Shown: positions 3,444 through 23,424 of the stretch, piece by piece
Layout: each line of letters begins with the position of its first letter
How positions within the stretch are numbered: position 1 is the first letter of the stretch
Virus record (IMG/VR): IMGVR_UViG_3300029267_004155
Source: a virus
Lineage: Duplodnaviria; Caudoviricetes
DNA: 64,000 nt
Strand: one strand, 5' to 3'
Translations under genes and position numbers: made by a program
The notes under the pieces: model-generated
Database searches by the model: none
Told to the model about the DNA's origin: nothing
Seen by the model: the letters and a program-made list of their open reading frames with translations, nothing else

Positions 3444-3488
3444 TCTTGTGCGTCTGTGGCTGAGGCGTATAATGGTGGCGGAGGCGAG

Positions 3489-4064
3489 ATGGAAAAGGCC
3501 ACTTTGACCGACATACTGGACATGTGGATGATGCGGACGCCGAGGCTTTTCAAGAGCGACGCGACCGCCTTGAGTTTCCTGGAGGCCTGCGCCGGGGTGG
3601 CGCGGGGAGAGGTTGGGCTCGCGCGACCGCCGGAGCTGCTGGCGGCCGGGGGCTTCTCCTCCTCCGGGGTTGACGCTGAGGAGATGAGGAAGGAGCTGGC
3701 CTTCGTGGCCGGAGAAGGAGCGGACGATGACAGACCAGGCGGACCAGGCGGAGTTGACGGCGAGGGAGTCGGAGGACAGGAGGAAGTGGCCGGAGAAGGA
3801 GGCGGAGGACACGAGAAGGTGGCCGCGGAAGGAGCAGGAGGCGGGAGGCCAGGCGGAGCCGAGGGCGAGGGGGTCGGAGGACAGGAGAAGGGGACCGGAG
3901 GACAGGAGAAGGGGGTCGGAGGACAGAGGAAGGGGGGCGAGGGACCAGGGGCCTCCGGGGAACCCTCACGTCCAGCACATGAGGGGCGTGATCCTGGAGA
4001 CGATCCGGGCCGTGCAGAAGGAGAAGCACGACTGCCTGGACTGCTTCCAGGCTTTCGCCCGTAG
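3489..4064 (+). CDS. hypothetical protein (Gly/Glu-rich tail overlaps next ORF)
   Basis: GGAGG RBS downstream of TATAAT at 3468. Confidence 0.45.
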   Translation: MEKATLTDILDMWMMRTPRLFKSDATALSFLEACAGVARGEVGLARPPELLAAGGFSSSGVDAEEMRKELAFVAGEGADDDRPGGPGGVDGEGVGGQEEVAGEGGGGHEKVAAEGAGGGRPGGAEGEGVGGQEKGTGGQEKGVGGQRKGGEGPGASGEPSRPAHEGRDPGDDPGRAEGEARLPGLLPGFRP

Positions 4065-4143
4065 CGCCCGGGACGAGGAGGAGCTCAAGAACGTGATGAA
4101 CGGCATGATGCTGGTGGGGAGGCTGCACAGCAATGACGCCTGA
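3727..4143 (+). CDS. hypothetical protein with EDRRR repeats
   Basis: AAGGAG RBS; 21-nt tandem repeats ~3870-3932. Confidence 0.55.
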   Translation: MTDQADQAELTARESEDRRKWPEKEAEDTRRWPRKEQEAGGQAEPRARGSEDRRRGPEDRRRGSEDRGRGARDQGPPGNPHVQHMRGVILETIRAVQKEKHDCLDCFQAFARSARDEEELKNVMNGMMLVGRLHSNDA

Positions 4144-4351
4144 CGAACAGCTGATCTGCACCCGGTGCGGCGCCGAGATCGAGAGCATGATGGATGTGGG
4201 CTATCTGGGGCCGAGGGACCGGGGCGACAGGAGCTGCCACCCGTTCATGGAGTTCGAGACGGTCTGCCGGGAGTGCGAGGACAAAGGTGCCGAAGGCACG
4301 TCGGGAAAATCCGGCGACGGGGTTGGCAAGTCGGCGCCCGAGGGTGTATAA
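4133..4351 (+). CDS. small zinc-finger protein
   Basis: CTRC...CREC. Confidence 0.55.
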   Translation: MTPDEQLICTRCGAEIESMMDVGYLGPRDRGDRSCHPFMEFETVCRECEDKGAEGTSGKSGDGVGKSAPEGV

Positions 4352-4352
4352 T
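4323..4352 (+). promoter_or_regulatory. sigma70-like promoter for tRNA block 1
   Basis: TTGGCA-N18-TATAAT. Confidence 0.75.
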
Positions 4353-4420
4353 GGGATTTTGGACGACGGGTGAGGGTCCTGGCCAATTCCAGGGCTGGAC
4401 CCCACAAACCGAGAGAGACG

Positions 4421-4510
4421 ATGGACAAGCAGAGTCGCAACCTGATGTTGGCATGTTGTGGGCGGGGATATTCCTCGTTCCGCCTTACGCCTGCGTCCGG
4501 GCTGCGTTGA
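4421..4510 (+). CDS. leader peptide 1 (MDKQSRNLMLACCGRGYSSFRLTPASGLR), putative attenuator
   Basis: Short ORF between promoter and terminator; contains GCGTCCGGG (4493-4501) complementary to terminator 5' arm; codons match block-1 tRNAs. Confidence 0.75.
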   Translation: MDKQSRNLMLACCGRGYSSFRLTPASGLR

Positions 4511-4529
4511 CGCTCGTCGAAGCCCCTAG

Positions 4530-4568
4530 GCCCCCGGACGCGAAAGCCTCCGGGGGTTTTTCTGTTTC
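4530..4568 (+). terminator. intrinsic terminator (attenuator 1)
   Basis: GCCCCCGGA-CGC-GAAA-GCC-TCCGGGGGT followed by T-tract, directly before the first tRNA. Confidence 0.85.
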
Positions 4569-4569
4569 T

Positions 4570-4660
4570 GGAGGGCGACCGGCTGCACGAGGAGCTCGAT
4601 TTGAAATCGGGTAGGCCCTGGAAACGGGGTCTCGGGGTTGGAGTCCCCGGCCCTCCTCCA
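4570..4660 (+). tRNA. tRNA-Ser(TGA), atypical
   Basis: Cloverleaf, long variable arm, CCA; T-loop TTGGAGT, U73. Confidence 0.75.
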
Positions 4661-4669
4661 GGATTGAAA

Positions 4670-4754
4670 GGCCCAGTGGCGGAATTGGCATACGCGCCCG
4701 ATTCAAAATCGGGTCCCTTCGGGGATGGGAGTTCGACTCTCCCCTGGGCTACCA
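4670..4754 (+). tRNA. tRNA-Leu(CAA)
   Basis: Cloverleaf with CCA. Confidence 0.93.
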
Positions 4755-4816
4755 GCAACAAATGGAACGAGATAGCGAGTCCGGGATCGAGAGAAGGAGA
4801 TGATCGACGACGAGAT

Positions 4817-4902
4817 GCGTCGGCTGAGCATTTGGCGAGCTCCCCGGTCTGTAAAATCGGCGCCTTCGGGCTTTGATGGTTCGACTCCATCTCGGCGCAC
4901 CA
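4817..4902 (+). tRNA. tRNA-Tyr(GTA)
   Basis: Cloverleaf, variable arm, CCA. Confidence 0.88.
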
Positions 4903-4915
4903 ACAACTGAACAGT

Positions 4916-5002
4916 GGTCCCGTGCCGGAATTGGCATACGGCCCCGGTTGAGGGCCGGGGGCCCGAGAGGGCGTGGGAGTTCGAGTCTCCCCGGGGTCAC
5001 CA
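4916..5002 (+). tRNA. tRNA-Leu(GAG)
   Basis: Cloverleaf with CCA. Confidence 0.92.
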
Positions 5003-5010
5003 GGAATCAT

Positions 5011-5101
5011 GGAGAGCATCCGGCCGGATGAGGAGCGCGTTTCGAAAGCGCGTAGGTCCCGGGAACGGGGCTTCGGAGTTCGAGTCTCCGGCTCTCCGCC
5101 A
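5011..5101 (+). tRNA. tRNA-Ser(CGA)
   Basis: Cloverleaf, long variable arm, G73-CCA; atypical D-arm. Confidence 0.85.
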
Positions 5102-5199
5102 AGATGTGGACCGGGGCTTCAAACCTCGGTGCAACCCATTAACGTCTTGTGGGGTATGCAAAGGCGTGACTTCGCCGGGTGGAGAGAACCCGGCAACAA

Positions 5200-5285
5200 G
5201 CCCGGGTGGTGGAATTGGCAGACACGCTGCGCTCAGACCGCAGTGCCGAAAGGCGGTGAGGGTTCGACTCCCTCCTCGGGCACCA
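5200..5285 (+). tRNA. tRNA-Leu(CAG)
   Basis: Cloverleaf with CCA. Confidence 0.93.
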
Positions 5286-5294
5286 GATTTAGAC

Positions 5295-5371
5295 GCAGTG
5301 GTAGCTCAGCCAGGTAGAGCTTCCGCCTTCCAAGCGGAAGGTCGCGCGTTCGATTCGCGTCCACTGCACCA
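5295..5371 (+). tRNA. tRNA-Gly(TCC)
   Basis: Cloverleaf with CCA; A73. Confidence 0.92.
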
Positions 5372-5387
5372 TTGATAGGAGGAAGGA

Positions 5388-5564
5388 GTGAGGGCGCCAA
5401 ACTCGGTGATACGCGAGCGACTTGACCGTTGGTGCAAGCCGTGTCGTAAGATGGACGCCAAGGCGATGGTGTGCTTGGTGGAGAGGTGCAACGTCAGACG
5501 AAAGGCGTCGTTGGCAGAAGAGTCGTGCCCGATGGGTTTCTGGGGGAAGTACGAGGAGATTTGA
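5388..5564 (+). CDS. small Cys-rich protein (R..CxxC..C..C..K..CP..W pattern)
   Basis: GGAGGAAGGA RBS, GTG start, 58 aa; absent from the ORF track. Confidence 0.65.
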   Translation: MRAPNSVIRERLDRWCKPCRKMDAKAMVCLVERCNVRRKASLAEESCPMGFWGKYEEI

Positions 5565-5569
5565 ATAGT

Positions 5570-5660
5570 GGAGAGCGTCCGGATGGACGAGGAGTCGGTT
5601 TGCTAAACCGGTAGGCCCTGGAAACGGGGTTTCGGGGTTCGATTCCCCGGCTCTCCGCCA
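5570..5660 (+). tRNA. tRNA-Ser(GCT)
   Basis: Cloverleaf, long variable arm, CCA. Confidence 0.87.
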
Positions 5661-5738
5661 AAGATTGTGTCCCGACCGGTGCTCGGGCTTGGCAGCCCGA
5701 CGGGTCCAAACGCCCGGCCAGAACTGGAAGGGACTTTC

Positions 5739-5815
5739 GGTGAGGTAGCTCAGTCCGGTAGAGCACTCGGTTGAAGCCCGAGGCGTCGTTGGTTCGATTC
5801 CGACTCTCACCACCA
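5739..5815 (+). tRNA. tRNA-Phe(GAA)
   Basis: Cloverleaf with CCA. Confidence 0.93.
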
Positions 5816-5820
5816 ATTTG

Positions 5821-5904
5821 GCCCGAGTGGCGGAATGGCAGACGCGGCCGGTTTAAGTTCGGCTGTCGAAAGGCGTGCAGGTTCGATCCCTGTCTCGGGC
5901 ACCA
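5821..5904 (+). tRNA. tRNA-Leu(TAA)
   Basis: Cloverleaf with CCA. Confidence 0.92.
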
Positions 5905-5906
5905 AG

Positions 5907-5930
5907 GTGTAGCAGTGTAGCAGTGTAGCA
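5907..5930. repeat. tandem repeat (GTGTAGCA)x3
   Basis: Three exact copies in a tRNA spacer. Confidence 0.9.
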
Positions 5931-5942
5931 AAGGAGATTTTT

Positions 5943-6018
5943 GGCGGGGTGGCTGAGAGGTTTAGGCGCGCGGTTGCAACCCGCGTTCATGAGGGTTCGA
6001 GTCCCTCCCCCGTCTCCA
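5943..6018 (+). tRNA. tRNA-Cys(GCA)
   Basis: Cloverleaf, U73, CCA. Confidence 0.92.
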
Positions 6019-6026
6019 TTTTCGAT

Positions 6027-6196
6027 GAGGCCGTCCACCTAATGGCAAGGGCCGGAGCGGAGCGCCGCATAGCCCGTCGAGGCGCAAGCGCGACGGGTGA
6101 CGCCTGCGAGTCCAAAGGGCTGTGACATGGCCAGCCACGCGGGCTGCGGAATGGGCAGGACGCACCGGGATGCGGGTTCGAGTCCCGTCGGCTTCA
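6027..6196 (+). ncRNA. tRNA-like RNA with ~100-nt structured insert replacing the anticodon loop
   Basis: Acceptor GAGGCCG/CGGCTTC, D-loop TAATGGCAA, T-arm GCGGG-TTCGAGT-CCCGT, CCGG/CCGG stem enclosing the insert. Confidence 0.65.
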
Positions 6197-6204
6197 GACT
6201 TTGA

Positions 6205-6295
6205 GGAGAGCATCCGGCTGCATGAGGAGCGCCGTTGGAAACGGCGTCGGTCCGGGAAACCGGGCTTCGGGGTTGGAGTCCCCGGCTCTCCGCCA
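6205..6295 (+). tRNA. tRNA-Ser(GGA), atypical elbow
   Basis: Cloverleaf, long variable arm, CCA; T-loop TTGGAGT. Confidence 0.82.
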
Positions 6296-6327
6296 GTATG
6301 TTAAGGGCAACCCAAAGGAGGTTGCTG

Positions 6328-6993
6328 ATGAAGATCGAGGGCTGTCGGGTGGCCGCGGCGATGGTCGTCTATCACACCTACGGCCTGATGAGGAAGGCGG
6401 TGGCGTCGGTGAGGAGGTTCTATCCGGACATCGACTTCTTCGTGGTGGACAACACCGAGGGGGTCGCTCCGAGGAACGTCAGGAAATGGGCGAAGAGGAA
6501 CCGGGTGAGGCTTATCCGGGTGGGGTCCAACATCGGCCATGGGCCGGGGATGAACGTGGCGCTGTGGGCGACGGAGGCCGACGTGCTGCTGATGCTGGAC
6601 AGCGATACGGAGATGTACGAGCCGAACTTGCTGGAGGACGCCCTGGCGAAGGTCGGGGGCCGGAAGACCAGGTGGTACGGGATAGGGCCGGTCGCGCCGG
6701 TGAAAAGGCCGGTGGGAGGCGAGAAGGTTTCGTACCTTCATTCGTCGACGTGCCTCTTCCATGTCGGGTACTATCGGCGGTTCGAGCCGTTCACGGACCA
6801 CGGGCTTGCGCTGGTGGCGCCGATGTACGAGCTGAGGGTCAAGAGGATGGAGTCGATGCTGGTGGACTTCCCGGTCCAGGACTACGTGCATCACCTCTGG
6901 AGAGGAACCAGGGACTTTTGCAGGGGCCACCAGCTGGACAGGTCTTACGAAAGCCGGAAGTCGGCCTCCTGGTGGGAGCCTGGGAAGTTTTGA
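6328..6993 (+). CDS. glycosyltransferase family 2
   Basis: VVDN, N.GHG.GMN and LDSD motifs; AAGGAGG RBS. Confidence 0.85.
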   Translation: MKIEGCRVAAAMVVYHTYGLMRKAVASVRRFYPDIDFFVVDNTEGVAPRNVRKWAKRNRVRLIRVGSNIGHGPGMNVALWATEADVLLMLDSDTEMYEPNLLEDALAKVGGRKTRWYGIGPVAPVKRPVGGEKVSYLHSSTCLFHVGYYRRFEPFTDHGLALVAPMYELRVKRMESMLVDFPVQDYVHHLWRGTRDFCRGHQLDRSYESRKSASWWEPGKF

Positions 6994-6999
6994 TAATGA

Positions 7000-7077
7000 G
7001 CGCCCGTAGCTCAGTCTGAATAGAGCGCCCCGCTACGGACGGGGAAGTCGCAGGTTTGAATCCTGCCGGGCGTGCCA
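7000..7077 (+). tRNA. tRNA-Arg(ACG)
   Basis: Cloverleaf with CCA; D-loop GA with T-loop TTTGAAT. Confidence 0.88.
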
Positions 7078-7084
7078 ACTTTGA

Positions 7085-7160
7085 GGACCTGTAGTTCAGT
7101 TGGAAGAACATCGGTCTCCGAAGCCGAAGGTCGCGGGTTCGAGTCCCGCCGGGTCCTCCA
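7085..7160 (+). tRNA. tRNA-Arg(CCG)
   Basis: Cloverleaf with CCA. Confidence 0.92.
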
Positions 7161-7167
7161 GAATTAT

Positions 7168-7244
7168 CCGTCTGTAGCTCAGTTGGTTAGAGCGGTCGTC
7201 TCATACGCGACAGGTTGTAGGTTCGATCCCTACCAGACGGACCA
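7168..7244 (+). tRNA. tRNA-Met(CAT), elongator-type
   Basis: Cloverleaf with CCA, paired 1:72. Confidence 0.88.
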
Positions 7245-7347
7245 TCCTCTTTGAAGACGGGCCTCTGGCGGTGTACAATAGGCCAGGAGGTGCGCCGCGA
7301 GGCTTGAGGCGAGGTGACGATCGACGACTACGAGAAGGAGCGGGGCG

Positions 7348-7971
7348 ATGACGGGAGTGCTTGACAGGCGGGTCCTGGTGCTTGACGGCTCGTGGAGGCC
7401 GGTGGACGTGACGAACGTGGTCGGGGCCCTGTGCAAGGTGTGCGCGGGGAAGGCCGACGTCGTCGACAATGACTACTCCCTCTACGGCTTCGAGGAGTGG
7501 GTCGAGAGCTGGTCCGACGCGGCCAGGGCCGCGGAGATGGCCGAGTCGGGGCGCCCCCTCGTGCGTTCCAGGAGCTTCGCCTTCCCGGCGCCGGAGGTCA
7601 TCCGGCTCGTCCGGAAGGTCCGCTTCTGGCGTCGTCGGGCCAAGCTCTGCCGGAAGGCGATCTTCGCCCGCGACCGGAACGTCTGTCAGTACTGCGGCAA
7701 GAAGCTGCCGGCCTCCAAGCTCAACATCGACCACGTGGTCCCCAAGTCCAGGGGTGGAGGCACGACCTGGGAGAACCTGGTTCTCTCGTGCGTGAGGTGC
7801 AACCACAAGAAGGACAGCCGGACGCCCAGGGAGGCGGGCCTGACGCTCCTGAGGGAGCCGAGGGAGCCGCACTGGGCCGTCGTCAACAGGCGTGGCATCC
7901 TGAGGGACCCTCCCAGGTCGTGGGAGGACTTCCTCGGCGCCATGTACTGGGACGTCGAGCTGGAGGGCTGA
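7348..7971 (+). CDS. HNH endonuclease (McrA-like)
   Basis: RDRNVCQYCG...IDHVVPKSRGG...ENLVLSCVRCNHKK. Confidence 0.95.
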   Translation: MTGVLDRRVLVLDGSWRPVDVTNVVGALCKVCAGKADVVDNDYSLYGFEEWVESWSDAARAAEMAESGRPLVRSRSFAFPAPEVIRLVRKVRFWRRRAKLCRKAIFARDRNVCQYCGKKLPASKLNIDHVVPKSRGGGTTWENLVLSCVRCNHKKDSRTPREAGLTLLREPREPHWAVVNRRGILRDPPRSWEDFLGAMYWDVELEG

Positions 7972-8003
7972 CGGGCCGGTTCTCGGAAAAATCTCCGAGG
8001 GGG

Positions 8004-8033
8004 CTGGTAAGACTGGCGTTGACGGCGTATGAT
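8004..8033 (+). promoter_or_regulatory. sigma70-like promoter for tRNA block 2
   Basis: CTGGTA-N18-TATGAT with the GGCG pre -10 context shared by other promoters here. Confidence 0.65.
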
Positions 8034-8048
8034 AATAGGCAAGGAGCA

Positions 8049-8129
8049 ATGTACTCAATGAACCCGATGGCCAGACACGAAGCGATCGAGCAGCCCGCGA
8101 ACGCGGGTGCCGGGGGTGCTGTGTTCTGA
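8049..8129 (+). CDS. leader peptide 2 (MYSMNPMARHEAIEQPANAGAGGAVF), putative attenuator
   Basis: AAGGAG RBS; GGGTGCCGGGGGT (8105-8117) is the perfect 13-nt complement of terminator arm 8147-8159; codons match block-2 tRNAs. Confidence 0.8.
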   Translation: MYSMNPMARHEAIEQPANAGAGGAVF

Positions 8130-8145
8130 CCCTGATAGGTCCAAG

Positions 8146-8186
8146 GACCCCCGGCACCCCGAAAAGGGCGTCGGGGGTTTTTCTTT
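8146..8186 (+). terminator. intrinsic terminator (attenuator 2)
   Basis: GACCCCCGGCACCCC-GAAAA-GGGCGTCGGGGGTT plus T-tract. Confidence 0.85.
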
Positions 8187-8222
8187 GGAGTCGAGAGAAG
8201 GAGGGCGAGTCACGAGCAGGAC

Positions 8223-8300
8223 GGGCCGGTAGCTCAGTTGGCTAAGAGCACCTGACTTGCAATCAGGATGTCCAGGGTTCGATCCCCTGTCGGTCCACCA
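8223..8300 (+). tRNA. tRNA-Ala(TGC)
   Basis: Cloverleaf, G3:U70, CCA. Confidence 0.94.
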
Positions 8301-8311
8301 ACAATTCAGAT

Positions 8312-8389
8312 GCGCCTCGGAGCTCGGTCAGGAAGAGCGCCCGGTCGTGGCCCGGGAGGCCGCGGGTTCGAGTCCCGTCGGGGCGCCCA
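8312..8389 (+). tRNA. tRNA-His(GTG)
   Basis: G-1:C73, CCA; C33. Confidence 0.85.
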
Positions 8390-8398
8390 GGATCATGC

Positions 8399-8476
8399 GG
8401 TGGCGTAGCTTAGTTGGCCGAAAGCGCTGTCCTGTCACGGCAGAGAACGAGGGTTCAAATCCCTTCGTCACCGCCA
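8399..8476 (+). tRNA. tRNA-Asp(GTC)
   Basis: Cloverleaf, G73-CCA. Confidence 0.92.
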
Positions 8477-8483
8477 ATATCAC

Positions 8484-8559
8484 GGCCACGTAGCTCAGCG
8501 GCAGGAGCGTCCGGTCCACACCCGGATGGTCGAAGGTTCGAGTCCTTCCGTGGTCACCA
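8484..8559 (+). tRNA. tRNA-Val(CAC)
   Basis: Cloverleaf with CCA; C33. Confidence 0.87.
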
Positions 8560-8565
8560 GTTCGA

Positions 8566-8639
8566 TGCCCGGTGGTGTAATGGCAGCACAGCTGGTTCTG
8601 GCCCAGTCGGTCAGGGTTCGAGTCCTTGCCGGGCAGCCA
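8566..8639 (+). tRNA. tRNA-Gln(CTG)
   Basis: U1:A72, cloverleaf, CCA. Confidence 0.93.
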
Positions 8640-8647
8640 GATATCGA

Positions 8648-8724
8648 GCGCCCGTAGCTCAGGGGATACGAGCAGCGCACTTCTAATGCGCGGGTCGAAG
8701 GTTCGAATCCTTCCGGGCGTGCCA
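8648..8724 (+). tRNA. tRNA-Arg(TCT)
   Basis: Cloverleaf with CCA. Confidence 0.93.
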
Positions 8725-8726
8725 AT

Positions 8727-8803
8727 GGGCGGTTAGTTCAGATGGCTAGAACGTCAGCTCGACATGCTGAAGGTTGCGAGTTCGAGTCTCGCACCGCCCA
8801 CCA
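8727..8803 (+). tRNA. tRNA-Val(GAC)
   Basis: Cloverleaf with CCA; C33. Confidence 0.88.
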
Positions 8804-8834
8804 TCAGTCAAGGAGAGAGGCGAGAGCAACATGT

Positions 8835-8911
8835 CGGCCCATAGCTCAGTTGGTAAGAGCGAACGGCTGATAACCGTTAGGTCGGAGGTTCGATTCCTCC
8901 TGGGCCGACCA
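8835..8911 (+). tRNA. tRNA-Ile(GAT)
   Basis: Cloverleaf with CCA. Confidence 0.94.
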
Positions 8912-8925
8912 ACAATTGAATATGT

Positions 8926-9000
8926 GTCCCCATCGTCTAGCGGCCAGGATGCGAGGCCCTCAACCTCGTGACGCCGGTTCGAGTCCGGCTGGGGATGCCA
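8926..9000 (+). tRNA. tRNA-Glu(CTC)
   Basis: Cloverleaf with CCA; C33. Confidence 0.9.
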
Positions 9001-9112
9001 GGATTGAGGGCTGCAATATGGCCGGAAAGCAAGTCGCGGGCTTTGCCGAGTTCCAAGACGCGCAGAAGCGGGTAGACGGCAGTCCTGGGGGAGCGGCAAA
9101 CTCCCCCGAACT

Positions 9113-9189
9113 CGGGATGTGGCTCAGTCTGGTAGAGCGTCCGGCTGGGGGCCGGAAGGTCGCAGGTTCGATTCCTGCCATCCCGACCA
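9113..9189 (+). tRNA. tRNA-Pro(GGG)
   Basis: Cloverleaf with CCA. Confidence 0.94.
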
Positions 9190-9199
9190 TAGACTTGAG

Positions 9200-9278
9200 A
9201 GCGGGGTGAATGTCGATTTGGTAAGACGCCAGGCTCATAACCTGGAGCATGTGGGTTCAACTCCCACCCCCGCCACCA
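9200..9278 (+). tRNA. tRNA-fMet(CAT), initiator-type
   Basis: A1xC72 mismatch, CAT anticodon, CCA. Confidence 0.82.
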
Positions 9279-9343
9279 ATATCGGGACGTGACGAGCGGT
9301 TTGACTCCGTCGCCTGAAGCGTGAATGGGCAAGCGTCCCACTT

Positions 9344-9418
9344 GGCCCCATCGTCTAGTGGCAAGGACGTCGGGTTTTCATCCCGGAGACGGGGGTTCGA
9401 TTCCCCCTGGGGCTACCA
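9344..9418 (+). tRNA. tRNA-Glu(TTC)
   Basis: Cloverleaf with CCA. Confidence 0.93.
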
Positions 9419-9426
9419 GTTTTAGA

Positions 9427-9498
9427 TGGCCCGTAGCTCAGCGGTAGAGCATGCGACTCATAATTGCGGGGTCCTCGGTTCAATCCCGAGCGGGCCAA
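9427..9498 (+). tRNA. tRNA-Ile2/Met(CAT)
   Basis: Cloverleaf; anticodon arm GCGA-CTCATAA-TTGC resembles Ile2; ends CTA rather than CCA. Confidence 0.8.
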
Positions 9499-9667
9499 CT
9501 AGTTTTTTGTTGCGATGATGGCCGGTACCGGCGAGGGAAAGTCATCAGATGGGCGCCAACCGGGTATTGCTCGGAAGAAGGCACTGTCGGAAATCGGTGG
9601 TGGGGTGACGTCCGAAGCCGCCGTTCGCCGACGCCCGTTCCGTCTGGCGGCGGCCGCGACATCTTAT

Positions 9668-9744
9668 CGGGATGTGGCTCAGTCTGGTAGAGCGCCTCGT
9701 TCGGGGCGAGGAAGCCGGAGGTTCAAATCCTCTCATCCCGACCA
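9668..9744 (+). tRNA. tRNA-Pro(CGG)
   Basis: Cloverleaf with CCA. Confidence 0.94.
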
Positions 9745-9749
9745 GTTTT

Positions 9750-9826
9750 CGGGCGGTGGCGCAGTTTGGAAGCGCGCGGCGTTTGGGGCGCTGAGGTCGC
9801 CGGTTCGAGCCCGGCCCGCCCGACCA
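9750..9826 (+). tRNA. tRNA-Pro(TGG)
   Basis: Cloverleaf with CCA. Confidence 0.92.
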
Positions 9827-10006
9827 GTCTCGGGATGTGTCCAGACGTGGAGAAACTGGACCGCAAAAACAAAAAACTCTCGCAGTAACGAGACCCGAAA
9901 GGGATAGGAAGTGAGGAAACTGCGTCAACAACACTCGGCCTCCGTAGCTCTGGGCGCTTACACCTACGGACCTTTTCGCAGGCAGGAAGATGGAGGAAGA
10001 CGATTG

Positions 10007-10894
10007 ATGGACCTGATAGTGGAAACCGACATCGGGCACGATCCCGACGACTACTTCACGCTGTGCCACCTGCACGCCGCGGGTGTCAGGATCAGGGCGA
10101 TCCTCGTCTCTCCCGGACACCGGTACCAGGTCGCCATCGCGAGGGCCTTCTGCGCGGAGGTCGGCCTGGATGTCCCTGTCGGGATCGCGAAGGAGACGAG
10201 CGTCGTCAAGACCGGAGGGACGTCGTTCCACATGGCGCTCCTGAGGAAGATGGGACATCCGACCGAGGCGGACCCCGACGGCTTCGGCCACGAGCTTCTG
10301 GGCGGGGTTCTCGAGGACCATCCGGACAGCGACGTCTTCATCTGCGGGCCGGTGAAGAACGTGGGCCGCTACATGATCGAGCATCCGGAGAGGGAGTTCG
10401 GGCGGGTCACGATGCAGGGTGGCTTTCTGGGATACGACCTTCATGGCCATGACGTCGAGAGGCTTCCCAAGTTCAAGGGCAAGGTGGCCGTGCCTACCTT
10501 CAACTTGAACGGGTCGAAGGACGAGGGCTTGTTCCTGGCGTCGCGGGCGAAGGTCGGGGACCTGAGGTTCGTCGGCAAGAACGTCTGTCACACGATCCTG
10601 TACGACAGGGCGAGGCACGAGTGGATGAGGCGCAGGAAGCCTTCCTGCCGGGCGATGGAGCTGTTCATGGAAGGCATGGACCTCTATCTCTACGGGAAGA
10701 GGCACCGGGAGAAGAAGTTCCACGACCCGACCGCTGCCGTGTGCCATCTGCATCCCGAGATCGGGACCTGGGTTGGCGGAAGGTTGTACCGGGAGGGAGG
10801 CTGGTGGGGGACGAAGGTCGAGGAGGGGACGAACACCAGGGTCTTGGCCGATGTTGACCGGGAGGGGCTTTGGGACTTTATCAGAGGGTGTTAG
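10007..10894 (+). CDS. nucleoside hydrolase-like protein (IU-NH fold)
   Basis: ETDIGHDPDD Asp cluster, GPVKN, MQGG, TFN and HDP motifs. Confidence 0.85.
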   Translation: MDLIVETDIGHDPDDYFTLCHLHAAGVRIRAILVSPGHRYQVAIARAFCAEVGLDVPVGIAKETSVVKTGGTSFHMALLRKMGHPTEADPDGFGHELLGGVLEDHPDSDVFICGPVKNVGRYMIEHPEREFGRVTMQGGFLGYDLHGHDVERLPKFKGKVAVPTFNLNGSKDEGLFLASRAKVGDLRFVGKNVCHTILYDRARHEWMRRRKPSCRAMELFMEGMDLYLYGKRHREKKFHDPTAAVCHLHPEIGTWVGGRLYREGGWWGTKVEEGTNTRVLADVDREGLWDFIRGC

Positions 10895-10913
10895 GGCCCG
10901 TCCGGCCATGGAT

Positions 10914-10987
10914 TGCCCCGTGGTGTAATGGCAGCACAAGTGTCTTTGGAGCACTCGGTTCTGGTTCGAGTCCAGGCGGGGCAGCCA
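10914..10987 (+). tRNA. tRNA-Gln(TTG)
   Basis: Cloverleaf with CCA. Confidence 0.93.
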
Positions 10988-11049
10988 TCTCCTGGGCGCG
11001 GGCAGGCCGGGGCCGGCCTCGATCCCCGTCGGAAAAACCGAGAGGTCGC

Positions 11050-11078
11050 TTGGCAAATTCGGGCGAGCGGCGTATAAT
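11050..11078 (+). promoter_or_regulatory. sigma70-like promoter for tRNA block 3
   Basis: TTGGCA-N17-TATAAT. Confidence 0.8.
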
Positions 11079-11102
11079 AAGGCAACGAAAGGCAACTACG
11101 TC

Positions 11103-11186
11103 ATGCTGACGGGAACCACAACGAAAGACAATACCTGGGGCGGCAAGCCCGCCCACGGGGGTCTTTCGCTTGGAGTTCAAGCGTAG
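11103..11186 (+). CDS. leader peptide 3 (MLTGTTTKDNTWGGKPAHGGLSLGVQA), putative attenuator
   Basis: GAAAGG RBS; CGGGGGTCT (11156-11164) complementary to terminator arm AGACCCCCG (11207-11215); codons match block-3 tRNAs. Confidence 0.78.
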   Translation: MLTGTTTKDNTWGGKPAHGGLSLGVQA

Positions 11187-11206
11187 ACGGTGGCGAGCGC
11201 GCTGTG

Positions 11207-11243
11207 AGACCCCCGGCCCGAAAGGGCGCGGGGGTTTTTCTTT
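11207..11243 (+). terminator. intrinsic terminator (attenuator 3)
   Basis: GACCCCCG-GCCC-GAAA-GGGC-G-CGGGGGTT plus T-tract abutting tRNA-Gly. Confidence 0.85.
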
Positions 11244-11319
11244 GCGGCAGTAGCTCAGTCGGAAGAGCACCTGCTTGCCAAGCAGGAGGCCACGGGTTCG
11301 AGCCCCGTCTGTCGCACCA
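11244..11319 (+). tRNA. tRNA-Gly(GCC)
   Basis: Cloverleaf with CCA; A73. Confidence 0.92.
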
Positions 11320-11330
11320 GGTTTCATGAT

Positions 11331-11407
11331 AGGTCCGTAGCTCAATCGGCTAGAGCACCGGTCTCCAAAACCGGCGGTTCTCGGTTCGACCCCGAGCGGG
11401 CCTGCCA
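11331..11407 (+). tRNA. tRNA-Trp(CCA)
   Basis: Cloverleaf, G73-CCA. Confidence 0.93.
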
Positions 11408-11411
11408 AGAA

Positions 11412-11487
11412 CGGCTCGTAGCTCAGTTGGTAGAGCATCCGCCTTTTAAGCGGAACGCCGAGGGTTCGAGTCCCTCCGAGCCGACCA
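11412..11487 (+). tRNA. tRNA-Lys(TTT)
   Basis: Cloverleaf with CCA. Confidence 0.93.
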
Positions 11488-11501
11488 GAAATTCGGAGCG
11501 A

Positions 11502-11540
11502 GTGGAAAACCTTGCTCGTTCGGCAATGTAGGGTGGAGAC
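11502..11540 (+). promoter_or_regulatory. conserved motif copy 1 (GTGGAAAA-N12-GGCAAT..GGG)
   Basis: One of 9 copies with invariant spacing. Confidence 0.75.
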
Positions 11541-11568
11541 GAGGTTCAACAGAAGGAGATGTGATCGA

Positions 11569-11642
11569 GGTTCCGTAGCTTAGAGGTAGAGCGGGCGGCT
11601 CGGACCGCGTGGCCGCAGGTTCGAGCCCTGCCGGGACCTCCA
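11569..11642 (+). ncRNA. tRNA-like RNA with 6-nt anticodon loop
   Basis: Intact acceptor, D and T arms plus CCA; GCGG-CTCGGA-CCGC. Confidence 0.7.
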
Positions 11643-11663
11643 ACTCGACAGGAGAGTCTATTC

Positions 11664-11740
11664 GCACCCGTAGCTCAGTTGGCTAGAGCGGCTGACTCTT
11701 AATCAGCAGGTTCTCGGTTCGAACCCGAGCGGGTGTGCCA
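11664..11740 (+). tRNA. tRNA-Lys(CTT)
   Basis: Cloverleaf with CCA. Confidence 0.94.
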
Positions 11741-11751
11741 ACAATTCAGAT

Positions 11752-11847
11752 GCCGATGTGGTGTAATGGTAGCACACCGGGTAAACCGGAGGTTTTCCTC
11801 GATCAGCGCGCGTAGTCGAGGCGGTTCAAGTCCAGACATCGGCTCCA
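11752..11847 (+). ncRNA. tRNA-like RNA with shortened anticodon arm and a hairpin inserted at the T-stem
   Basis: GCCGATG/CATCGGC-T-CCA, canonical D-arm, CCGG-GTAAA-CCGG, extra CCTCGAT/GTCGAGG hairpin. Confidence 0.7.
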
Positions 11848-11965
11848 ACAACTTAGGCGACACCTGCCTGTCCGAAGAAGGTCCGGCGACGAGCGGGGAC
11901 GAACCCGTGGACGACCAGGCTGGAGGAGAAGTGGTGTGACTCGGGTGAGAGCAGGCCCGCATTAA

Positions 11966-12042
11966 GCCCGGATAGCTCAGTGGCTAAGAGCAGCCGATTC
12001 GTAATCGGCAGGTCGAGGGTTCGAGTCCCTCTCTGGGCTCCA
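11966..12042 (+). tRNA. tRNA-Thr(CGT)
   Basis: Cloverleaf with CCA. Confidence 0.93.
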
Positions 12043-12045
12043 GAC

Positions 12046-12119
12046 TCCCCCATGGTGTAATGGTAGCACGTAGGACTGTTAATCCTTTGGTCCTGGTTCG
12101 AGTCCAGGTGGGGGAACCA
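12046..12119 (+). tRNA. tRNA-Asn(GTT)
   Basis: Cloverleaf with CCA. Confidence 0.92.
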
Positions 12120-12169
12120 ACTCAAGCCGGGTCGACGAGATCGGCCGTCAGGGAAAAGGAGGCAGGGAC

Positions 12170-13612
12170 ATGAAGAGGGAAGAGACGATTCGGAAGCTGT
12201 ACGAGTGCGTTCAGACGCGTCCGCGTCCGGAGGATGTTGCCGAGGTCGTGCTGGAGGCATTGCTTCCGCGGCTGTCGCTGGCCCAGAGGAACGTCTTGAA
12301 GCAGGCGACCAGGATCTCGACGAGGAGCCACCTCCTGGGCTACTCGTCCATGGCCGCGGACTTCCATCGCCCGACGGGCATGGAGAAGCCGGTCAAGGTG
12401 GCGTCCGAGCTCTTCTCCGTTCCGATGCTGTCGGTGGAGGAGTGCCTCGACCCGGAGAGGGTGGAGGTCTTCGTCCAGGGCGTGTCGTCGGCCATCGGCA
12501 AGAGCTACGGGCAGTCCGACTTCCTGAAGCACCGGATGAACCGGGAGCAGCGGGCGCAGGCGGGCCTCGACATGGGGCACCGCGCCTACAACAAGCGCTT
12601 CAGGCTCCTGGGCCGGATGGAGTCCAAGCTCCTGAGGATGGTCCGCGAGCGGAAGAAGTACGTCCTGACCCGGATCGGCAAGAGCGGCTTCGCCGTGGAG
12701 ATCGACTTCGACGACTTCTCCGCCGACCTGGGCACGGCCTGCTTCGTGGCGTACATGAGCGCGAGGATGAGCCTTCGGAGCACCTTCACGAACGACTCCC
12801 AGGTTCGGGCCTTCGACGTGGTGGCCAAGATGCTGTACGACCGCCTGACCAAGTCCAACACGGCCAGGTGGGACGTCGTGGCCGCCGTCTATCCGGTGGA
12901 CAGGGTCCTGAGGCTCCTGACGGACTACCAGAAGGGCGCCATGCTCGCGAGGGCGTGGGGTCTCCTGGAGGACGCGTGCGACCTTCTCACGGAGGTCTGG
13001 GAGGGTTCCGGCGGCGGCATCGACCTGGAGAGGATGGTGGTGCGGCGCGGGTGCGACTCGTCGACGTGGAACCAGTCGGCCGGCGGGTGGAACAAGGCCC
13101 GGGACCACTGGGTGTCGATGCTTCACGCCATGGGCATGGGCTCCATGCTTGAGGCCCTGTGCCCGGGCAAGGTCATGAGGCTGATGGCGGCGGACGTGGT
13201 CCGTTGGCACCTGGCCTCGGGCGGCGACGTCCATCCGGGGACCAAGGTGTGGGCTGAGCTTCCGTACCCGTGGGACGTCGTCGCGGGCAAGGAGCGGTGC
13301 ACGAAGGAGATGGTGGTGGCCGCGTGCGAGAGGCACGGCGTCGAGCCGGCGTCCTGGGTCGGGCCGAGGAGGCGTGCCCGGGCCGTGGAGTTCACGCCGA
13401 CCCCCGAGCTGGTGCACGGCGTCGCCGTGTCGAGCCCGGGACTGGCTCTCGCCCTGCGGAGGGCCGGGGTCTTCTCGGCCAAGGCCCTCAGGGCCGAGCA
13501 TCTCCCGGCCGGCGGCTTCCATGTCGACAGGGACGGCGACGGCTTCGCGCTCGGGGCGACCGACGCGAATTCTCACGGGTCGGGCCGGAAGGTCCGGGCC
13601 GCGGGCGTATAG
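12170..13612 (+). CDS. hypothetical protein embedded in the tRNA array
   Basis: 480 aa, AGGAGG RBS, typical codon usage; no function recognised. Confidence 0.85.
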   Translation: MKREETIRKLYECVQTRPRPEDVAEVVLEALLPRLSLAQRNVLKQATRISTRSHLLGYSSMAADFHRPTGMEKPVKVASELFSVPMLSVEECLDPERVEVFVQGVSSAIGKSYGQSDFLKHRMNREQRAQAGLDMGHRAYNKRFRLLGRMESKLLRMVRERKKYVLTRIGKSGFAVEIDFDDFSADLGTACFVAYMSARMSLRSTFTNDSQVRAFDVVAKMLYDRLTKSNTARWDVVAAVYPVDRVLRLLTDYQKGAMLARAWGLLEDACDLLTEVWEGSGGGIDLERMVVRRGCDSSTWNQSAGGWNKARDHWVSMLHAMGMGSMLEALCPGKVMRLMAADVVRWHLASGGDVHPGTKVWAELPYPWDVVAGKERCTKEMVVAACERHGVEPASWVGPRRRARAVEFTPTPELVHGVAVSSPGLALALRRAGVFSAKALRAEHLPAGGFHVDRDGDGFALGATDANSHGSGRKVRAAGV

Positions 13613-13625
13613 TAGGAGTGGATGC

Positions 13626-13702
13626 AGGTGTGTAGCTCAGTGGTAGAGCGTCCCGGCTCTTTTTCCGGGAGGACGCAGGTTCGAGCCCTGCCTCACCTGC
13701 CA
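13626..13702 (+). ncRNA. tRNA-like RNA with 6-bp stem and 8-nt anticodon loop (copy A)
   Basis: TCCCGG-CTCTTTTT-CCGGGA, canonical D and T arms, GCCA end. Confidence 0.7.
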
Positions 13703-13709
13703 ATCTTGT

Positions 13710-13787
13710 CTCGACGTAGCTCAGTGGTAGAGCGTCCCGGCTCTTTTTCCGGGAGGACGCAGGTTCGAGCCCTGTCGTTCGAGGCCA
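13710..13787 (+). ncRNA. tRNA-like RNA with 8-nt anticodon loop (copy B, different acceptor stem)
   Basis: 59-nt exact repeat of copy A body (13632-13690 = 13716-13774); bulged acceptor, GCCA end. Confidence 0.65.
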
Positions 13788-13895
13788 TTTGGTTTTCGAC
13801 CCCTGTCGGTTCGACTCCGACGTCCGGCTCCTATACTAGTTGCACGGGAGGCGGCCACACCGGTTGGAAGGGTGGGCCCGGGGGTCTTTCTTGAC

Positions 13896-13965
13896 GTCCC
13901 CGGCTCAATGGAGAGCTGGGCACTTGTGGCGCCCAGACGCCAGTTCGATTCTGGCAGGGGCTCCA
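13896..13965 (+). pseudogene. degenerate compact tRNA-like element
   Basis: T-arm GCCAG-TTCGATT-CTGGC, TCCA end, shortened acceptor/D linker; anticodon ambiguous (TGT or GTG). Confidence 0.55.
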
Positions 13966-14138
13966 TCCTCCGTTCCGCGTCCCTGGTCCGAGCCCGAGGG
14001 CAGGCCGCGTCTTTCTTCTCCTCCTTGGCGGCGTATAATCCCATGACGAATCATGGAGGGCGCTGACGACGTAGAATGGGATGGAGAGCTTTGCGGACTG
14101 GTGGCGGTAGCCAGAGAGCGAGAACAAGGAGATGCGAG

Positions 14139-14354
14139 ATGATCTATCGGGGCAAATGGTTCACGGTGAGGGTCGAGGAGCTGGCGGAGGTTGGCGTCTC
14201 GACGTCGCAGGGGAACAAGGGTGAGGTCGTGCGCGGGCTGCACGTGACGCACAGGTCGGGGACGCAGAACCGGACGTCTTACGCCGACGAGGCGGAGCTC
14301 ATGAGGGACTACGAGGGGCTCGCCGCGGCCATGGAGAAGGTGGACGACAAGTAG
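14139..14354 (+). CDS. hypothetical protein
   Basis: AAGGAG RBS; TATAAT at 14034. Confidence 0.65.
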   Translation: MIYRGKWFTVRVEELAEVGVSTSQGNKGEVVRGLHVTHRSGTQNRTSYADEAELMRDYEGLAAAMEKVDDK

Positions 14355-16910: not shown

Positions 16911-19052
16911 ATGCCAGTTGGATACTACAGCAAGGAACAGGCGCAGGACGCGGTGGTCGCTGCCGGGCTCGGCGCGGCCGGACTTGACGGTGTCAGGGTT
17001 GTTTGGCACGACGAGAAGATCGTTCCCAACGCCGATCCCGACAAGGGCGTCGTCAACCTTCCCCGCCTCGCTTGCGCCGAGGGGTTCACCCAGGAGGAGC
17101 TGACCGTCCTCCGGGGCAACACCGACCACGAGATCGGCCACTGCAAGGAGTCCGTCGGGGTTTCCAGGCGCCAGTGGCCCAAGGGTCCCCTCTTCGGAAT
17201 TTGGAACGCGATCGAGGATCGCCGCATGGAGCGCGCCTTCTCGAAGGAGTGGCCCGGCATCCGGTCCACCTTCCGCGACGCCCTCGGCATCGCCAACAGG
17301 AAGATCGGCGGCAACATCCTCGACGGCAAGGAGTATCCTCCACTGTGGGAGGCGCTCGCGGCCATGAGCTTCCAGTCCGAGGGCGAGGCTCCGACGTGGA
17401 AGCTCACCGACAAGGCCGACCACTACTACCAGGCCGGATATGCCACCTTCTCCGAGTGGCGCGAGTGCGAGACGGCCAGGGACGCCCTGGACCTCGCCAA
17501 GCGCCTCCACGCCGTTCTCAATCAGGCCAACAAGGACTGGCAGGAGAAGCAGGACGACGGTCAGGGCCAGGGCTCTGGCGACGGCGAGGACGAACGGGAC
17601 GGGCAGGACGGGCAGCCGGGCGAGAAGAAGTCCGACGACAGCGACGGCGAGGGCGGCCAGGATGCCGGTGGCCAGGATGCAGGGGAGCCTGCTGGAGAGT
17701 CCGACGAGGAAGGTGACAAGGACGCCGGCGACGGTTCTGGTGCTGGCGGCTCGAAAGAGCTTGATGACGATGGTGACGACTCCGGCGACTCCGAAGACGG
17801 GCAGTCTGGCGGGGGAGGTTCGGACGATGGTGACGACTCCGGCGACTCCGAAGACGGGCAGTCTGGCGGGGGAGGTTCGGACGATGACGGTGACGGACAG
17901 GGCGATGGAGCCTCCGGGGGCGGCGAGCCGGACGAGGGCGGCGAGCCGGACCGGCACGACGGGGCCGAGGGTCATGGTGGCGGCGGCCGGGGGCCCGGTG
18001 GTGGCCACAGGGACGAACTGCCGGACGACGAGGACGTCGACAGGGGCTTGACGCCCGAGGACGTCGAGAGGGCCATTGCCGAGGACATGGACGGGGACAA
18101 CCCCATCGACCTCGTCAAGGGCGAGATCGTCGTGGAGGCGATGGAGCGAGTCGAGAGGGACGCGTGGAGCTCGGGCGCCAGTCCGTACACGGCCCTCAGG
18201 CACACTGATGAGCACACGGTCCCGGCTGGCGACAGGGACGAGTTCATGGCTCTCAGGAAGAGTATCCAGACTTCCGTCTTCGCGCTGACCCGGATGCTGG
18301 AGCAGGCCCTCAGGGCCATGGCCAGCTGTCGCAGGTTGCGAGGCAAGCGGTCGGGCCGGCTGGACGCCACCCGGCTGGTCCACGTGGCCAAGAGCCTCTC
18401 CAGGGACGTCTTCGAGCGCAAGCGCCTCGGGTCCAAGCTGGACACGGCGGTCGTCCTGGTCATCGACGAGAGCGGCTCCATGTGGGCCTGCAGGGAGATA
18501 GGCAAGGTCGTGGCGGCCATGGGCGAGGCCATGTCGGCCTGCAACATCCCCTTCGAGATAGTGGGGGCGACCACCAAGTACAGTGGCGGGGCCAGGAGGT
18601 GTCCGTGCCTGGACGGCTTCACCCGGACCAACCCCGTGGTCTACATGCACTACAAGAGCTTCGGCGAGCGGTGGGCCGGCGTGGCTCACAGGATTGTCGA
18701 GATAGCGGCCCGCAAGCACCACATCGACGGCGAGGTCGTGGAGCACGGGGCTGCCCGGCTGCTGGGGCGCCGGGAGTCCCGCAAGGTCGTCATCAGCCTC
18801 TCGGACGGCGACCCCTGCGGCGGGCAGGGCAACGACCGGGAGCTGGCGAGCAACCTGGTCCGCGTCTGCAAGCGGGCCCGGGAGGCGGGCGTCGAGGTCT
18901 ACAGCCTGAGCATCGACACGACGACTCCGGCTCGCTACTACGGCAAAGAGAACAGCGTGGTCATGAAGAAGGGCGACGACTTCGGCAAGGAGTTCGCCAG
19001 GAACTTCGTCAAGATACTCACCGACGGGCGGTTGAAGGTCGCCGGGGTCTAA
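16911..19052 (+). CDS. CobT-like protein: HExxH domain, acidic linker, C-terminal VWA
   Basis: [18 protein letters not shown]-rich linker, IDESGSM MIDAS and LSDG. Confidence 0.88.
17766..17879. repeat. 57-bp in-frame tandem duplication in the acidic linker
   Basis: Two identical units starting at 17766 and 17823. Confidence 0.9.
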
Positions 19053-23395: not shown

Positions 23396-23424
23396 AAAGC
23401 CGGAGGGTGTCCTCCGGCTTTTCT
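23396..23424 (+). terminator. intrinsic terminator
   Basis: AAAGCCGGAGG-GTGT-CCTCCGGCTTTT. Confidence 0.85.

Follow-up and report, generated by a model that had tools for sequence, protein, structure and literature searches.

The explanations offered for why phages carry arrays of tRNA genes are codon-usage compensation and escape from tRNA-targeting defences. The locus described here raises the question of how transcription of such an array is controlled, and in particular of what is achieved by a short open reading frame and an intrinsic terminator standing between a phage promoter and a block of 15 tRNA genes. The window (the whole stretch of DNA that was analysed, 64,000 nucleotides in length) comes from a huge phage that is uncultured and has a GC content of 63%. 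Its long genes, which include those for a CobT-like protein, an NAD ligase, an intein-bearing protein and tail-fibre-like repeats, all lie on the + strand, and the same DNA is present on public contigs of up to 298 kb. Between 4670 and 13787 there are 38 tRNA genes recognized by ARAGORN, plus one recognized by Rfam at 9203-9275. The public copies of the phage that were retrieved are identical over the tRNA region (13 contigs with the flanking gene). The sole difference over 19 kb in copies from other samples is a 57-nt indel at a tandem repeat in the CobT-like gene (16911-19052, near 17830). Neither a megablast search of window positions 3900-12200 nor a tblastn search with a 480-aa protein encoded at 12170-13612 returned a match among cultured phages. 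Elsewhere in the window, an 858-aa protein (28130-30706) is split by an intein whose homing endonuclease domain is of the LAGLIDADG type.

The unit of interest, U2, has the order promoter, Shine-Dalgarno sequence, open reading frame, terminator, tRNA genes. Its features and those of the tRNA genes behind it are as follows.

8004 to 8186, + strand: the whole unit (phage promoter, 23-codon open reading frame and intrinsic terminator)
7985 to 7992, + strand: A-tract GGAAAAAT 5' of the -35 element (promoter alignment by eye, n = 11 sites)
8004 to 8009, + strand: -35-like hexamer CTGGTA, followed by an 18-nt spacer; the equivalent in U1 and U3 is TTGGCA
8024 to 8033, + strand: extended -10 element GGCGTATGAT, which includes TATGAT; the phage promoter motif
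8041 to 8046, + strand: Shine-Dalgarno sequence AAGGAG, 11 nt from the ATG at 8058 and 2 nt from the ATG at 8049
8058 to 8129, + strand: leader open reading frame of 23 codons plus TGA (8127-8129); an in-frame alternative start at 8049 adds Met-Tyr-Ser
8061 to 8105, + strand: sensor zone, the 15 codons after the start, 5' of the antiterminator arm
8090 to 8110, + strand: small hairpin (region 1:2, -13.2 kcal/mol) overlapping the beginning of the antiterminator arm
8105 to 8117, + strand: antiterminator 5' arm (region 2) within the 3' part of the open reading frame, GGGTGCCGGGGGT
8147 to 8159, + strand: region 3, the antiterminator 3' arm ACCCCCGGCACCC, of which 8148-8159 doubles as the terminator 5' arm
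8148 to 8186, + strand: intrinsic terminator, -22.8 kcal/mol (arms 8148-8159 and 8166-8177, loop 8160-8165)
8223 to 9826, + strand: tRNA block 2, 15 genes (ARAGORN and Rfam), in the order Ala TGC, His GTG, Asp GTC, Val CAC, Gln CTG, Arg TCT, Val GAC, Ile GAT, Glu CTC, Pro GGG, Met CAT (9203-9275, Rfam only), Glu TTC, Met CAT, Pro CGG, Pro TGG
8648 to 8724, + strand: tRNA-Arg(TCT), within block 2
10914 to 10987, + strand: tRNA-Gln(TTG), 3' of a nucleoside hydrolase gene (10007-10894)

Because no promoter motif lies in between, tRNA-Gln(TTG) possibly belongs to the same transcription unit as block 2.

The promoter assignment draws on a motif, GGCGTATAAT, that with at most one mismatch has 11 sites on the + strand of the window against 0.46 expected. 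The A-tract found 5' of the U2 promoter is also present upstream of the promoters of two sister units, U1 and U3, and among the 11 aligned sites it is common only to these three. The sites fall into two promoter classes with a shared extended -10 element: a tRNA-leader class at 4343, 8024 and 11069, and another at 3464, 13604, 14030, 23431, 26381, 40421, 45014 and 56594. A TTGGCA-type -35 element together with an upstream GGAAAAA tract occurs only in the three tRNA-leader promoters. The U2 transcript is predicted to start near 8040, which would place the AAGGAG at its extreme 5' end. A preliminary description of the locus had called this a strong ribosome-binding site; the motif is indeed there, but its position and a spacing that is awkward for either ATG make the word strong doubtful. 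The leader may start at either 8058 or 8049, and translation of the open reading frame is putative.

The terminator consists of a GC-rich hairpin (8148-8177) followed by the T tract TTTTTCTTT (8178-8186), and a gap of 36 nt separates it from the first tRNA gene, that of tRNA-Ala. The possibility that it marks the end of the upstream HNH gene was considered and rejected, as a promoter intervenes between that gene and the terminator. A strict terminator scan of the window gave nine on the + strand and none on the - strand. Where other terminators adjoin promoters they precede them (terminator/promoter at 23399/23431, 40315/40421 and 56544/56594), and the three tRNA units reverse this order. Two of the elements of a leader-peptide attenuator are thus in place: between the promoter and the first controlled gene lies a short open reading frame with a start codon and a ribosome-binding site (with the reservation as to its spacing of 11 or 2 nt), and between that frame and the controlled genes lies an intrinsic terminator.

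A third element is an alternative helix that uses the 5' arm of the terminator. The preliminary description had proposed a 13-bp antiterminator encoded by Gly-Ala-Gly-Gly codons, and this pairing is exact: positions 8105-8117, the last base of a GCG codon and the four codons that follow it, form 13 perfect pairs with 8147-8159. As 12 bases of the latter arm also constitute the 5' arm of the terminator, the antiterminator and terminator helices are mutually exclusive. When the 101 nt upstream were shuffled 5000 times with dinucleotides preserved, no 13-nt complement arose, the longest being 11. The antiterminator hairpin (8105-8160) has a calculated stability of -38.8 kcal/mol, compared with -22.8 for the terminator, and the U2 transcript takes the antiterminator form when folded to either 8160 or 8178. 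It follows that, with no ribosome on the RNA, U2 should read through by default. The hydrolase (10007-10894), the HNH protein and the 480-aa protein led to no alignable close relatives in which covariation of the helix could be followed; the closest relatives of the flanking proteins, at 65-72% protein identity, do not keep tRNA arrays beside those genes.

The effect of a ribosome on this competition was modelled by folding the RNA at equilibrium with the positions from -15 to +12 of the A site kept single-stranded. With the A site at codons 1-15 (8058-8100) the antiterminator mostly holds and read-through is predicted, whereas at every A-site position from 8103 (codon 16) to the stop codon the complete terminator forms and termination is predicted. 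At two codons, 8073 and 8085, the prediction is noisy. The switch point of the model coincides with the end of the stretch of codons that the preliminary description had named as the sensor. In U2, then, ribosome position selects the helix in the model, and the same geometry is found in 10 of 12 units compared (see below). The hairpin at 8090-8110 may serve as a pause hairpin. The same folding applied to the sister units gave no switch for U1 and only a partial one for U3, in both of which the terminator is thermodynamically favoured; their 9-bp antiterminators are taken to act kinetically and are not counted as support.

The remaining element of an attenuator is a correspondence between the regulatory codons and what the operon supplies. 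The peptide stretch M-N-P-M-A-R-H-E-A-I-E-Q-P-A, to which attention had been drawn earlier, represents codons 1-14 of the 8058 frame, and it does use both GAA and GAG, both CCG and CCC, and AGA, a codon that, as had been said, is rare (4% of the Arg codons in the long open reading frames of the window, in which GAA makes up 15% of the Glu codons); the tRNA-Arg(TCT) that had been placed in the block behind the leader is present there. AGG and AGA together account for 34% of the Arg codons of the phage. With standard wobble rules, 12 of the 15 codons in the sensor zone (CCG ATG AGA CAC GAA GCG ATC GAG CAG CCC GCG GCG) are read by block-2 tRNAs (p = 0.007), as against only one of the seven after it. 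In this way the leader samples ten tRNA species unambiguously, and 12 of 15 with wobble, nearly all by one codon. Over the whole frame, block-2 tRNAs read 13 of the 22 codons that follow the start, compared with 3 and 4 for those of blocks 1 and 3; own-block matches number 6 and 7 when the DNA is read in its other two frames.

The match has gaps. No codon for Asp(GTC) or Val(GAC) appears in the sensor, as already recognized in the preliminary description, there being no Asp codon and neither GTC nor GTT in the leader; the codon for Val CAC occurs only past the switch point; and two Asn codons, read by a block-3 tRNA, lie inside the sensor zone. The earlier statement that the leader is without Leu, Cys, Lys, Thr and Trp, residues assigned to other blocks, is correct as far as it goes, but two Asn, four Gly and a Phe are present and their tRNAs also belong to other blocks. 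The statistics of the whole frame are modest: for the 13 of 22 matches, p = 0.04 against shuffles of the leader's own bases and 0.14 against coding codon usage. Resampling of synonymous codons gave a weak result for U2 (p = 0.08-0.09) and a null result for U3; in this high-GC phage the match signal lies mainly at the amino-acid level. Regulatory codons and operon supply do correspond in U2, although the whole-frame signal of U2 alone is weak, and taken alone the codon match is suggestive, modest and not proven.

U2 is one of three paralogous units in the window. The other two are arranged as follows.

4323 to 4563, + strand: U1 (promoter 4323-4352, open reading frame 4421-4510, terminator 4531-4556 plus T tract)
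4493 to 4501 paired with 4533 to 4541, + strand: U1 antiterminator, 9 bp
4670 to 7244, + strand: tRNA genes of U1
11050 to 11243, + strand: U3 (promoter 11050-11078, open reading frame 11103-11186, terminator 11210-11234 plus T tract)
11156 to 11164 paired with 11206 to 11214, + strand: U3 antiterminator, 9 bp
11244 to 12119, + strand: tRNA genes of U3

The motif GGGGGTTTTTCT has three exact copies in the 64 kb (at 4552, 8173 and 11230; 0.2 expected), found only at the three tRNA units and in each case between promoter and tRNA block.

Some further features of the tRNA region were observed in passing. Two class-II tRNA-like sequences at about 4565-4665 and 6203-6297 are called by neither ARAGORN nor Rfam; by eye, each shows a long arm of the Ser type, the anticodons are TGA and GGA, and the T-loop reads, oddly, TTGGAGT instead of TTCGAGT. 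If they are functional, two TCC codons of leader 1 would be cognate to block 1. Between tRNA-Gly and tRNA-Ser of the same block, at about 5388-5564, there is by eye a Cys-rich open reading frame of 58 codons with two CxxC-like pairs, preceded by a strong GGAGGAAGGAG ribosome site. The tRNA gene at 11569-11642 scores 49.8 bits in Rfam yet has a 6-nt anticodon loop, which is why ARAGORN gives it a 2-base anticodon. The 480-aa protein belongs to no known family and has more than 1000 homologues, Myxococcota genomes included. In three unrelated contigs (the window, L043 7291-8805 and L044 10001-11743) tRNA-like genes whose anticodon loops have 8 nt come after its gene (ARAGORN anticodons 'cttt', 'cgat', 'cttc' and 'cttg'), and those of the window, at 13626-13787, have their own promoter at 13604.

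What turns a suggestive match into a convincing one is its recurrence. The loci used for comparison were tRNA blocks of unrelated huge phages, to which either flanking proteins or a tRNA 19-mer in common had led. A set of 12 units was assembled, comprising U1-U3 and nine units in three distant huge phages (L041, G001 and G002) of 35-40% GC, as against 63% here. L041 (35% GC) has two. In the open reading frame at L041:4490-4570 there are codons for Ile, Asp, Met, His and Trp as well as three for Arg (AGA, CGC and AGG), and the tRNAs behind it are Arg CCT, Arg TCT, Arg ACG, Trp, Ile, Asp, Asp, Met, His and His; that at L041:15019-15093 has the stretch EPEPEEPP and is followed by Pro, Glu, Glu, Pro and Glu tRNAs. 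G001 (572 kb, 40% GC) contributes three (L037:5191-5262:-, L038:11054-11143:- and L039:2382-2447:-), which by eye contain a his-like relay of three hairpins. The last of these has five different Leu codons and then tRNAs Leu TAA, CAA, TAG and GAG. The first corresponds to U2; Ala, Val, Glu, Met, Gly and Pro abound in its leader, and the tRNAs behind it are those for exactly the same amino acids. Its block is without His, Gln, Ile and Arg(TCT) and has Gly and more Val, and the leader shifts likewise, which is covariation at the functional level. In G002 (330 kb, 37% GC) a matched open reading frame is found at all four of the strict terminators that precede tRNAs, as illustrated by L062:7884-7946, where RRPQPQQPRR is followed by Pro, Gln and Arg tRNAs. 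In the same phage, at L061 (about 7440-7520 and 15400), ARAGORN reads tRNAs with anticodons CTA (amber, 'Pyl') and TTA (ochre suppressor), a hint of stop-codon recoding there. A sample of 40 loci added one unit each in L101:3749-3835:-, L111:4129-4200 and L086:14053-14112.

A Fisher combination of the shuffle p values for the first eight units gives 6e-14. Across the 12 units, the true pairing of leaders with blocks beats 200,000 of 200,000 permutations (p at most 5e-6) and scores highest among the 1728 pairings possible within genomes; the U2 leader ranks its own block first of 12 at both the codon and the amino-acid level. In 10 of the 12, the best partner of the terminator 5' arm lies between -49 and +11 nt from the end of the open reading frame, a position that in modelling terms would be under or beside a terminating ribosome, and the other two use a relay hairpin. 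The U2 antiterminator is the longest and the strongest of the 12. A blastn search with the three leader regions of the window against the 40 viral loci that share a tRNA 19-mer found nothing, and units and phages resemble one another in neither nucleotide nor peptide sequence: conservation is confined to the layout and the codon-to-tRNA relation. Since the codon match repeats in the three units of the window and in compositionally distant phages, we take it to be real. U2 is accordingly a member of a group of codon-matched leader attenuators of phage tRNA blocks, sharing its layout with U1, U3 and the units of L041, G001, G002 and the Caulobacter phage phiCbK. No such units were found in the high-GC huge phages G003, G004 and G006, Streptomyces phage CeilingFan or Stenotrophomonas phage RAS14; the codon-matched leader device is common, not universal, among tRNA-rich phages.

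PhiCbK (JX100813) provides an example from a phage in culture. Its GenBank record annotates rho-independent terminators directly before three tRNA blocks (48120-48166, 49745-49769 and 51465-51502), and three units have the leader-terminator-tRNA layout, one of them with its open reading frame at L119:1282-1344. One leader is gp083 (L119:2741-2878), a 45-residue 'hypothetical protein' that precedes Pro, Pro, Lys, Lys, three Leu, Ala and two Ser tRNAs; 31 of 44 residues are shared with its own block and one with each of the two others. The open reading frame at L119:4542-4640 precedes Phe, Val, Ile and Gln tRNAs, with 10 of 31 matched as against 3-5 for the other blocks. Attenuation and leaders go unmentioned in the genome paper, where Rfam gave no RNA elements besides tRNAs (PMC3556154). 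The presence of the same layout in a phage of a genetic model host makes the attenuator reading directly testable, the host of phiCbK being Caulobacter vibrioides, which is such a model.

Taken together, the anatomy of the unit, the switch point in the footprint model and the recurrence of the codon-to-tRNA match in other phages support the attenuator interpretation put forward in the preliminary description. We consider it probable, on the strength of the sequence and of folding models, that U2 is a ribosome-mediated leader-peptide transcription attenuator that couples transcription of the block-2 tRNAs to decoding speed. In essence, the strong U2 promoter would start an RNA near 8040, and a ribosome would load at its 5' end and read the 23-codon frame while RNA polymerase makes 8105-8186. 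A fast ribosome would cover 8105-8117 (standing on codons 16-20, or at the stop) as region 3 emerges, region 3 would then pair with region 4 to give the terminator, and the RNA would end at the T tract, short of the first tRNA by 36 nt. Were the ribosome delayed 5' of the antiterminator arm (A-site codons 8058-8100 in the model), or never loaded, 8105-8117 would pair with 8147-8159, and with this 13-bp helix, far more stable than the terminator, in place the polymerase would continue into the 15 tRNA genes. Dwell times would add over about a dozen codons, such that the delay reports the summed supply of block-2 aminoacyl-tRNAs. Because the product of the operon is the very set of tRNAs that is sensed, the tRNAs made would damp their own synthesis, a negative feedback on decoding capacity. 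Kinetic coupling and a response to tRNA supply are model-based predictions for U2, and candidates for the trigger are the codon demand of the phage itself, shut-off of the host and defences that cleave tRNA.

The hardware of such a device would be classical. The enterobacterial leaders include multivalent ones, thrL with Thr and Ile codons and ilvL of the ilvGMEDA operon with Leu, Val and Ile codons. Like these, and like trpL and hisL, U2 has a promoter-proximal short open reading frame on which the position of the ribosome would decide the competition between terminator and antiterminator, and it shares with thrL and ilvL the sensing of several amino acids by one leader. It differs from them in controlling tRNA genes and not biosynthetic enzymes, the sensed molecule being the product; in having its codons about once each, as a census of about ten tRNAs, where classical leaders use runs; and in that the untranslated state of U2 is predicted to be read-through. 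There is no homology of sequence or structure to the Rfam leader families: a search of 4200-14300 at E up to 1 gave no covariance match to the Trp, His, Leu, Thr and other leaders, only tRNA-related and chance matches. Another parallel is the pheST (phenylalanyl-tRNA synthetase) operon of E. coli, which has an attenuator with a Phe-rich leader. Here too, part of the translation machinery is governed by a leader-peptide attenuator that responds to how much charged tRNA is available; unlike U2, pheST is cellular and not viral, senses one amino acid, and controls the charging enzyme and not a tRNA gene. The units of L041, G001, G002, L101, L111 and phiCbK resemble U2 in layout, in the relation of leader to block and in the placement of the antiterminator arm at the end of the open reading frame, although some have a relay hairpin or a leaderless open reading frame, and none has sequence similarity to it. 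No published description of leader-peptide attenuation of tRNA genes was found in the full-text literature, older subscription papers being outside its coverage. On sequence evidence, U2 would represent classical attenuator hardware with a new target and logic, namely tRNA genes and a census-type leader in a virus.

Other readings of the locus must be weighed. The one that survives best keeps the same attenuator hardware and changes the signal, which would be general translation capacity or amino-acid supply (through ribosome availability, infection stage or starvation), with the codon match a by-product of tuning. Leader-peptide attenuators answer to charged tRNA, as is established for trp and his, so amino-acid starvation would open the switch too, and because the untranslated U2 RNA folds as the antiterminator, loss of initiation would turn the block on. 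We nevertheless regard this as unlikely, as it leaves unexplained why the composition of the leader tracks the tRNAs of each block in every unit-bearing phage examined, and why the variety of Arg and Leu codons mirrors the isoacceptors present.

Less probable again is that promoter and terminator define a trans-acting small RNA of about 145 nt, or a micropeptide of 23 residues, with read-through into the tRNA genes incidental. A unit running from promoter to terminator resembles a small RNA gene, and there is a precedent in Sinorhizobium, where the terminated attenuator RNA rnTrpL and its leader peptide peTrpL reportedly can act in trans (PMC6614838, PMC7298713). Against this, neither RNA nor peptide sequence is conserved between units or phages whereas the layout and the codon-to-tRNA relation are kept, and the units always stand directly before tRNA blocks. 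Such an activity would in any case be compatible with attenuation and does not exclude it.

That a chance open reading frame lies beside a leaky or insulating terminator, with no regulation and a coincidental codon match, might be argued from U2 in isolation, given that short open reading frames are common in DNA of 63% GC and that the statistics for this unit alone are modest. It sits badly with a 13-bp complement absent from all 5000 shuffles, with an order of promoter, open reading frame and terminator opposite to that at the other promoter-adjoining terminators of the window, and with the far poorer match of the other reading frames. With 12 to 18 replicates in unrelated phages and a permutation p of at most 5e-6, it is very unlikely on the comparative data.

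Direct sensing of uncharged tRNA without a ribosome is scarcely credible: T-boxes also couple tRNA status to read-through by a choice between terminator and antiterminator and read a codon-like specifier, but they bind one uncharged tRNA directly and need neither ribosome nor open reading frame, whereas the U2 leader RNA (about 145 nt) contains an open reading frame, is far too short for a stem I, and samples about a dozen different codons in a single frame with an ATG and a Shine-Dalgarno sequence. The T-box family RF00230 (stem I, specifier loop and T-box antiterminator motif) gave no match at E up to 1, and membership of any other riboswitch or known RNA family was rejected on the same search of 4200-14300.

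If U2 is the leader-peptide attenuator that we propose, the phage would measure decoding speed and supply tRNAs on demand, block by block, and a classical bacterial mechanism would be extended to non-coding RNA products, to viruses and to a closed loop that senses its own product. It would also bear on annotation: where a short open reading frame and a terminator stand before tRNA genes of a phage, the label hypothetical protein, as given to gp083 of phiCbK, should be avoided. The unit, at 240 nt, is portable in front of a reporter. More tentatively, and with rather less than even confidence, the three attenuators may be separate demand sensors by which the phage detects which subset of host tRNAs is limiting, be it through its own codon usage, host shut-off or host anticodon-nuclease defences, and transcribes the matching block only. 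If so, they would amount to a self-regulating circuit of tRNA repair and counter-defence that is widespread in huge phages, phiCbK included.
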